From assembly GCF_044324875.1 (NCBI RefSeq), contig NZ_CP172187.1: DNA of 64,000 nt; one strand, 5' to 3'. The number at the start of each line of letters is the position of its first letter. The stretch's first letter is position 1. Below, piece by piece: positions 26,284-26,706 of the stretch. The translations under genes and the position numbers were made by a program. This stretch comes from Escherichia coli. GTDB taxonomy: Bacteria; Pseudomonadota; Gammaproteobacteria; Enterobacterales; Enterobacteriaceae. A model generated the notes under the pieces. The model ran no database searches and had not been told where the DNA came from. It saw nothing but the letters and a program-made list of their open reading frames with translations.

Positions 26284-26344
26284 TTTTCCACCTCTGGTGA
26301 CTTTATCCGTAAATAATTTAACCCACTCCACAAAAAGGCTCAAC

Positions 26345-26400
26345 AGGTTGGTGGTTCTCACCACCAAAAGCACCACACACTACGCAAAAACAAGTTTTTG
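26345..26400 (-). promoter_or_regulatory. oriT nick region (R100/R1-type); nick inferred on the minus strand between 26375 and 26374
   Basis: Minus strand reads TTTTTGCGTAGTGTGT|GGTGCTTTTGGTGGTGAGAACCACC, matching the F-like nic core from memory; inverted repeat GGTGGTTCTCACCACC. Confidence 0.75.
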
Positions 26401-26706
26401 CTGATTTGCCACTTGAATCATTAACTTATGTTTTAAATAATGTATTTTAATTTATTTTACATTATAAAAAGGATTCATTGGTGAATCGCATATGATTCAC
26501 CAATGAATTTAACACAACTCATAGATGAATCAGTAATAATAAAACAACGAGTTAAAGCGAATTGACTCTAGATTCAATTCGTGATGTGATTTGCTGCATG
26601 AATCGTAATTTTCGTAACTTGCGTCACGATTCGATTCATCGATGAATTGTCATTTTTTTATATGTGAAATAAATTTGATGCGATAAGAAAATAAAGAGGT
26701 ATACAT

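Follow-up and report, generated by a model that had tools for sequence, protein, structure and literature searches.

The question raised by this locus is whether the space ahead of a conjugation operon is an origin of transfer and, if so, which strand is nicked there and which genes enter a recipient first. In the 64,000-nucleotide stretch of Escherichia coli DNA that was analysed (the window), the original prediction had assigned an oriT to positions 26290-26700, and this interval was found to be approximately the space between the ATG at 26283 of a minus-strand gene (SLT, or gene X) and the ATG at 26707 of plus-strand traM, i.e., the gap that precedes a complete MOBF/MPF_F tra operon. The local order is gene X (minus strand), oriT, and then traM, traJ, traY, traA and onward to traD and traI (plus strand), with FinP and the traJ 5' UTR at 27181-27290 in an Rfam scan at gathering thresholds. 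The assignment was borne out by the stretch between the 5' hairpin and the start of gene X, nic included, which is identical to both F and R100 bar two recognition bases. On these sequence comparisons, we consider it almost certain that the following region is the oriT of an F-like (IncF, MOBF/MPF_F) conjugative plasmid, which would be expected to work like the oriT of F, R1 or R100.

26290-26706, no strand assigned: oriT region, the entire gene X/SLT–traM intergenic space (~420 bp)

Matches to the oriT interval were noted in 4117 PLSDB plasmids, 3715 of them predicted to be conjugative, and in 2851 of 5426 complete E. coli genomes. From these counts and from the gene context, the element is therefore the oriT of a very common IncF plasmid family. 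The database matches end at module borders; thus, many cover only positions 1-118 of the query (the nic module), others cover positions 1-183 (through the IHF and TraY sites) and 674-725 records cover the whole interval. The 411-bp interval is 100% identical in the E. coli plasmid pTB-nb3, which is typed as MOBF/MPF_F and conjugative. Rfam holds no oriT family, and the scan of the window gave only FinP/traJ 5' UTR, sok, group II intron domains and three antisense RNAs. The region is AT-rich (GC 24-37% between 26400 and 26700), and a sigma-70 promoter scan of it returned 3 sites against 2.8 expected from shuffles. As far as sequence can indicate, the features of an F-like oriT that were looked for are present, with the IHF, TraY and TraM sites as candidates by resemblance.

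The nick had been predicted from a 36-mer, GCGTAGTGTGTGGTGCTTTTGGTGGTGAGAACCACC, on the minus strand. This 36-mer is present as one exact copy in the 64-kb window (26385 to 26350, 0 mismatches), and none of 100 dinucleotide-preserving shuffles contained a match to it with up to 3 mismatches allowed. The 22-mer TTTGCGTAGTGTGTGGTGCTTT, which is the counterpart of a published TraI-binding oligonucleotide, is likewise unique, running from 26388 to 26367 on the minus strand, and the nic core 5'-YGTGT/GGTGC-3' with its conserved flanks (the slash marks the scissile bond) is exact and occurs on this strand only once. A second oriT in the window was considered and rejected, as no further match to the 22-mer was found on either strand even at 3 mismatches.

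Comparison with published substrates placed the nick on the minus strand, as had been predicted. The F TraI substrate, 5'-TTTGCGTGGGGTGT/GGTGCTTT-3', is from the transferred 'bottom' strand and is cut after T141' (PMC2504302). The R100 5' half-site oligonucleotide GCAAAAACTTGTTTTTGCGTAGTGTGT (PMC3074121) is identical to window minus strand 26401-26375, and the R100 3' oriT 30- and 60-mers starting GGTGCTTTTGGTGGTGAGAACCACC (PMC3074121) are identical to window minus strand 26374-26315. In an alignment of the minus strand with F (NC_002483) and R100 (NC_002134), approximately 130 bp were identical except at two positions, and the stretch of identity, from AAATCAGCAAAAAC (or AAATCAGCAAAAACTTGTTTTTGCGT) through nic to the gene X ATG, is common to the window, F and R100. 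The nic core and recognition bases of R100 (NR1, IncFII), GCGTAGTGTGT/GGTGCTTTT, are identical to those of the window, as are both nic-flanking hairpins and all sequence to the start of gene X. The recognition bases at nic read GTAGTGTGT/GG in the window and in R100 and GTGGGGTGT/GG in F; that is, the nic-proximal ~130 bp of F is identical to that of the window save for two bases (G and G in F, A26381 and T26379 of the minus strand in the window), with matching changes in TraI residues. Homology to the mapped F nick (…GTGT/GGTG… on the transferred strand) thus places the nick of the window on the minus strand, with T26375 and G26374 on its two sides, and the arithmetic by which 26374 had been named as the first transferred base is right. 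The features around nic are as follows.

26374-26375, minus strand: nic, scissile bond T26375/G26374, placed by matching its context to that of nic in F and R100; predicted cleavage site
26373-26383, minus strand: putative TraI trans-esterase binding site, single-stranded GTAGTGTGT/GG, R100-type, by homology to F
26384-26401, minus strand: 5' hairpin GCAAAAAC-TT-GTTTTTGC (repeat I16), arms 8/8 complementary
26348-26367, minus strand: 3' hairpin TTGGTGGT-GAGA-ACCACCAA (repeat I17), -7.9 kcal/mol, z = -3.1

The trans-esterase footprint in the F relaxosome structure comprises nucleotides -2 to +9 (PMC12117103). The 5' hairpin, which folds alone at -5.3 kcal/mol (z = -2.9) and ends 9 nt ahead of nic, is identical to the 'Hairpin R100' oligonucleotide of PMC3074121, and the corresponding hairpin of F favours the re-joining (termination) reaction (PMC3074121). 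The 3' hairpin, predicted earlier as GGTGGTGAGAACCACC, proved real, with arms at 26348-26355 and 26360-26367 that are complementary at 8 of 8 positions and a sequence identical to that in F and in R100. It falls inside the stretch to -27 that is included in F relaxosome constructs as the TraI helicase site (PMC12117103); it would be within the first DNA unwound and exported, and any more precise role is putative. The 66-nt nic segment with both hairpins folds at -13.2 kcal/mol (z = -3.7).

The agreement of nic with the resident relaxase was evident from the following gene and from TraI residues 153, 193 and 201, which were read directly from the F and R100 TraI sequences.

58425-63695, plus strand: traI, intact, 1756 aa, cognate MOBF relaxase/helicase with Tyr16/Tyr17

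The product matches solved TraI structures (PDB 5N8O/1P4D) at E = 3e-204, and its trans-esterase domain (traI 58425-59360) is identical to that of R100 TraI at 305 of 310 residues. As summarised in PMC3245843, which cites Harley & Schildbach 2003, the TraI substitutions E153D/Q193R/R201Q were used to shift DNA recognition toward the R100 type. The same paper states that R1 and F share an identical nic region (PMC3245843); thus, R1 (IncFII) has nic GTGGGGTGT/GG together with TraI E153/Q193/R201, unlike the R100-type pair of the window. The pairs of nic sequence and residues 153/193/201 are:

Window: nic GTAGTGTGT, R100-type; TraI D/R/Q
R100: nic GTAGTGTGT, R100-type; TraI D/R/Q
F: nic GTGGGGTGT, F-type; TraI E/Q/R
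pE16EC0537-2: nic GTGGGGTGT, F-type; TraI E/Q/R

Such two-by-two covariation is an argument for the two variant bases being part of the sequence that the relaxase reads. At the level of sequence it shows that the window oriT is matched to its own relaxase, in the R100-type specificity group, and helper relaxases able to mobilise it would be R100-type TraI, not F/R1-type.

A synthetic query, consisting of the window oriT with an F-type nic, gave no 100% match in the database but led to siblings that are 99.5% identical to the query (two further substitutions) and carry an F-type nic. The oriT of these siblings, p7_2.1 (NZ_CP023821) and pE16EC0537-2 (CP088544), differs from that of the window at 4 of 411 positions, two of which are the nic recognition bases. 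The helicase part of their TraI is identical to that of the window at 1420 of 1446 residues, whereas they carry the F/R1-type nic with TraI E153/Q193/R201, unlike the window. Between window and pE16EC0537-2 TraI there are 50 differences, 25 of which are in the first 312 residues. A recent switch of relaxase specificity in this lineage, by a coordinated change of 2 nt at nic and a recombinant TraI trans-esterase domain 32 kb away, is conceivable from this pattern, although we think it unlikely. It is speculation that such switches are selected so that co-resident F-like plasmids are orthogonal, without cross-nicking or cross-mobilisation.

The oriT as a whole has the architecture of F, in which gene X, the 3' inverted repeat, nic, the 5' inverted repeat, the IHF site, the TraY sites, the TraM sites and traM follow one another in the same order, with the IHF, TraY and TraM sites of the window as candidates. 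On the traM side its sequence diverges from F as well as from R100 and is similar to R1.

26402-26428, no strand assigned: IHF site A-like TGATTTGCCACTTGAATCATTAACTTA, 24 of 27 bases as in the R1 IHF site; putative binding site
26440-26462, no strand assigned: candidate TraY (sby) sub-sites ATGT, ATTT and inverted ACAT, by analogy with R1 (PMC12117103)
26472-26508, no strand assigned: candidate TraM site (sbmC-like), repeat I3, a perfect 15-nt inverted repeat; putative binding site
26558-26640, no strand assigned: GANTC cluster, putatively sbmB/sbmA-like, just upstream of the traM promoter region, with palindrome I8 at 26558-26581
26707-27090, plus strand: traM, relaxosome protein with R1-type N-terminal DNA-binding domain
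28064-28291, plus strand: traY, 75-aa single ribbon-helix-helix accessory protein, annotated as traY in pTB-nb3

The R1 IHF site is quoted as TGATTTGCTATTTGAATCATTAACTTA (PMC12117103). In the window, the candidate TraY sub-sites begin 11 bp past the IHF-like site, a gap that is as described for R1 (PMC12117103). The sbmC-like repeat, at 26473-26508, holds three GANTC motifs at 11-bp spacing, and the 305 bp from 26402 to 26706 contain 10 GANTC against approximately 1 expected (~10-fold), a count that was reached in 0 of 5000 shuffles. Since the ribbon-helix-helix domain of TraM reads GANTC in the pED208 complex (PMC3159463), we infer by analogy that the GANTC clusters between 26472 and 26640 are sbm sites. 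Residues 2-56 of the window TraM are 100% identical to the DNA-binding domain of R1 TraM (PDB 1DP3), as compared with 36 of 56 N-terminal domain residues identical to F and 34 of 56 to R100; the C-terminal domain matches PDB 2G7O.

The window thus resembles R1 in its IHF site (24/27), in the 11-bp gap to the ATGT TraY sub-site and in TraM residues 2-56. In contrast, the traM-proximal two-thirds of the R100 oriT, with its IHF, TraY and TraM sites, could not be aligned in detail with the window, and the R100 and window proteins are identical at 99 of 127 positions for TraM and 36 of 75 for TraY, with TraJ largely unrelated. The TraM sites of F are also unlike those of the window, and F TraY is a tandem ribbon-helix-helix protein of 131-133 aa as opposed to 75 aa. 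The accessory half of oriT and TraM are R1-like, and TraY is probably so; this likeness rests on the identity with PDB 1DP3 and on the description of the R1 IHF and TraY sites in PMC12117103, and is indirect for the rest of oriT. That the oriT is a natural R1/R100 mosaic, in which an R1-type accessory module would be joined to an R100-type nic/relaxase pair, is well supported by these comparisons. Chimeric F/R100 oriTs are functional (PMC12117103), and a mosaic is consistent with this known modularity.

The direction of transfer was indicated by the genes on the gene X side of nic.

25774-26283, minus strand: SLT lytic transglycosylase (gene X/orf169/ygfA homologue), 169 aa, Pfam SLT E = 9e-22
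8547-25477, plus strand: leading region, in which all Pfam-supported genes are plus-sense
23583-24232, minus strand: predicted Frpo1-like ssi/single-strand promoter element, upstream of ygeB/ygeA (DUF932) homologues

The 5' phosphate at nic becomes joined to TraI (PMC3074121), and it is the leading region that enters the recipient first (PMC7690428, PMC9849209), the order of entry in F being ygfA, ygeA, psiB, yfjB and yfjA, followed by ssb (PMC9849209). Read 5' to 3' from G26374, the minus strand of the window encounters SLT, DUF932, hok/sok, psiA, psiB, the ParB-like gene, DUF905 and ssb. Since this is the F entry order, transfer heads from 26374 toward lower coordinates, in support of the polarity given in the original prediction. 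Leading-region order and Frpo elements are the same in F and in the window, and ygfA and SLT likewise share the opposite orientation (PMC9849209).

The further claim, that all leading-region genes are plus-sense with the transferred strand as their template, held for part of the region. It stands for the Pfam-supported genes between 8547 and 25477 (N6/N4 methylase, DUF1380, antirestriction, DUF3560, methyltransferase, ssb, ParB-like, psiB, psiA and DUF932), which are plus-sense, so that the transferred minus strand is their template. This rule is reported to be general for leading regions across plasmids (PMC11541004) and is documented in F (PMC9849209). Two minus-strand ORFs within the block (9072-10544 and 10607-11293) were rejected as real leading genes; Pfam gave no match for either, and both overlap genes on the plus strand. 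The claim fails for SLT at 25774-26283 and for a umuDC/dinI-like block at 4601-6614, both of which are minus-sense. SLT is the first gene transferred and yet is minus-sense, so the transferred strand is not its template. Its product is identical at 165 of 169 residues to the F protein that adjoins oriT, and F ygfA is a documented exception, expressed only after complementary-strand synthesis (PMC9849209). In relatives, RefSeq/PGAP annotates SLT as a 200-aa CDS with a GTG start at 26376, so that nic and the 3' hairpin lie within the CDS; the true start is probably the ATG at 26283, which gives 169 aa and matches the classical 'orf169'. The minus-strand umuC/umuD/dinI-like block lies outside the plus-sense leading block, past its distal end, and a transposase-like region was noted between it and the methylase gene at 8547.

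The Frpo1-like element is one of three paralogous copies of a repeat family of approximately 650 nt (12163-12811, 15522-16169 and 23583-24232), each of which lies upstream of a plus-sense block of leading genes. Copy 2 shares 98% identity with copy 3 over 300 nt, and alignment of the elements with the F Frpo1 region gave a mean column identity of 90%. The transferred strand of the element is predicted to form a long hairpin (-76.9 kcal/mol, z = -8.1); -35 and -10 boxes were not located within the hairpins. In F, the Frpo single-strand promoters drive early expression of leading genes (PMC9849209).

A nick on the plus strand, or a reversed polarity, would have traM and the tra operon enter the recipient first. 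Being palindromes, both hairpins do fold as well on one strand as on the other, but the single-stranded 5'-...GTGT/GGTG-3' recognised by the relaxase is present with its 22-nt context on the minus strand alone; this context is lacking around the two other GTGTGGTGC 9-mers of the window (45099 and 51920, plus strand), and three occurrences are within chance. F, R1 and R100, which have the same core base for base, send the leading region first (PMC9849209, PMC7690428), and neither the plus-sense leading genes nor the Frpo hairpins would make sense unless the minus strand were transferred. We hold either variant of this alternative to be exceedingly improbable.

An oriT that looks intact might also be functionally dead, left over on a plasmid that has lost conjugation. 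In favour of this reading, the window has an IS21-family insertion between traT and traD, two ORFs in place of one ParB-like leading gene and a group II intron in ssb. Every known cis element of the oriT, however, is intact and identical or near-identical to its counterpart in functional oriTs, traI, traD, traM and traY are full-length, the nic variant fits the resident relaxase and the 100%-identical relative pTB-nb3 is typed as conjugative. Moreover, oriT is cis-acting, so it would be mobilisable by a co-resident R100-type system even if the tra operon were impaired. A dead oriT is thus very unlikely, and a working oriT that is nicked on the minus strand and sends the leading region first is the preferred reading.

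The F-type tra operon ends in traD (56047-58425) and traI. The IS21-family element between traT and traD occupies 53580-55998 on the minus strand, opposite to the tra operon, and contains an istA-like ORF of 548 aa (rve and Mu-transposase C domains) and an istB-like ORF of 332 aa; a 284-aa plus-strand ORF upstream of it (52729-53583) gave no Pfam match. The element may have a polar effect on expression of traD and traI, so self-transfer of this copy is not guaranteed; the oriT would still work in trans, and its function in cis would be unaffected.

The transfer that we propose combines what the window itself holds (sequence identity, gene context and the nic–relaxase match) with protein binding, cleavage and order of transfer as described in the F, R1 and R100 literature. 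IHF would bend the DNA at 26402-26428 on the traM side of nic, TraY would bind beside it at approximately 26440-26462, and R1-type TraM tetramers would occupy the GANTC clusters (26472-26640) and connect the complex with TraD. The resident TraI would then bind, through its trans-esterase domain, the melted minus strand at GTAGTGTGT/GG (26383-26373), and Tyr16 would cut between T26375 and G26374 and remain on the 5' phosphate of G26374. As the TraI helicase unwinds 5' to 3' along the minus strand, this strand would leave the donor 5' end first, toward lower coordinates, so that the 3' hairpin is predicted to enter first, followed by SLT/gene X, DUF932, Frpo1, hok/sok, psiA, psiB, the ParB-like gene and ssb, and the tra operon at the end. 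Once nic is regenerated, a second cut there, assisted by the 5' hairpin (26384-26401), would close the strand into a circle. In the recipient, the incoming minus strand would be the template for the plus-sense leading genes, and the three Frpo-like hairpins could allow these genes to be transcribed before complementary-strand synthesis, which would not be open to minus-sense SLT.

The nic site, strand, polarity and template logic of F-like plasmids were settled decades ago and were recently confirmed by live-cell imaging and cryo-EM. The placement of these elements in the window is correct and is established knowledge, not new, and it leaves the current understanding of conjugation unchanged. 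Its value is mainly one of annotation: it indicates the transferred strand of this plasmid and the order of gene entry into the recipient, and the identity of the transferred strand separates genes expressible early from single-stranded DNA (anti-restriction, SOS inhibition, ssb) from those that are not (SLT).

Several minor observations concern the leading region. A 12-nt tandem array resembling a CTG/CTA trinucleotide repeat lies at 15437-15559, just before Frpo-like copy 2. Just downstream of that element, a group II intron of 2661 bp (16227-18887, plus strand) interrupts ssb after codon 13 in the sense orientation, the ssb exons being at 16188-16226 and 18888-19376. The intron starts with GTGCG, ends with ...CTAC and contains an RT/maturase/HNH ORF (16840-18741) and an Rfam domain V/VI (18767-18887). 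The joined exons encode a 175-aa SSB that is identical to the SSB of pTB-nb3, a plasmid without the intron, and the ssb–intron junction was found in at least 313 PLSDB plasmids. With ssb interrupted in this way, production of SSB from the incoming strand would need splicing. The ParB-like gene (19729-21686, plus strand) is split into overlapping ORFs at 19729-20427 and 20406-21686; its counterpart in pTB-nb3 is a single CDS of 652 aa, so the split in the window is probably a frameshift. Identity between the window and pTB-nb3 is 96.8% for segment 18888-23649 and 99.98% on the tra side. Three antisense RNAs scored above the Rfam gathering threshold, namely AS-pc01 (12932-13033, minus strand), which adjoins Frpo-like copy 1 in the leading region, AS-traG (49209-49294, minus strand) and AS-traI (61274-61350, minus strand), and these families were first described on plasmid pHK01.
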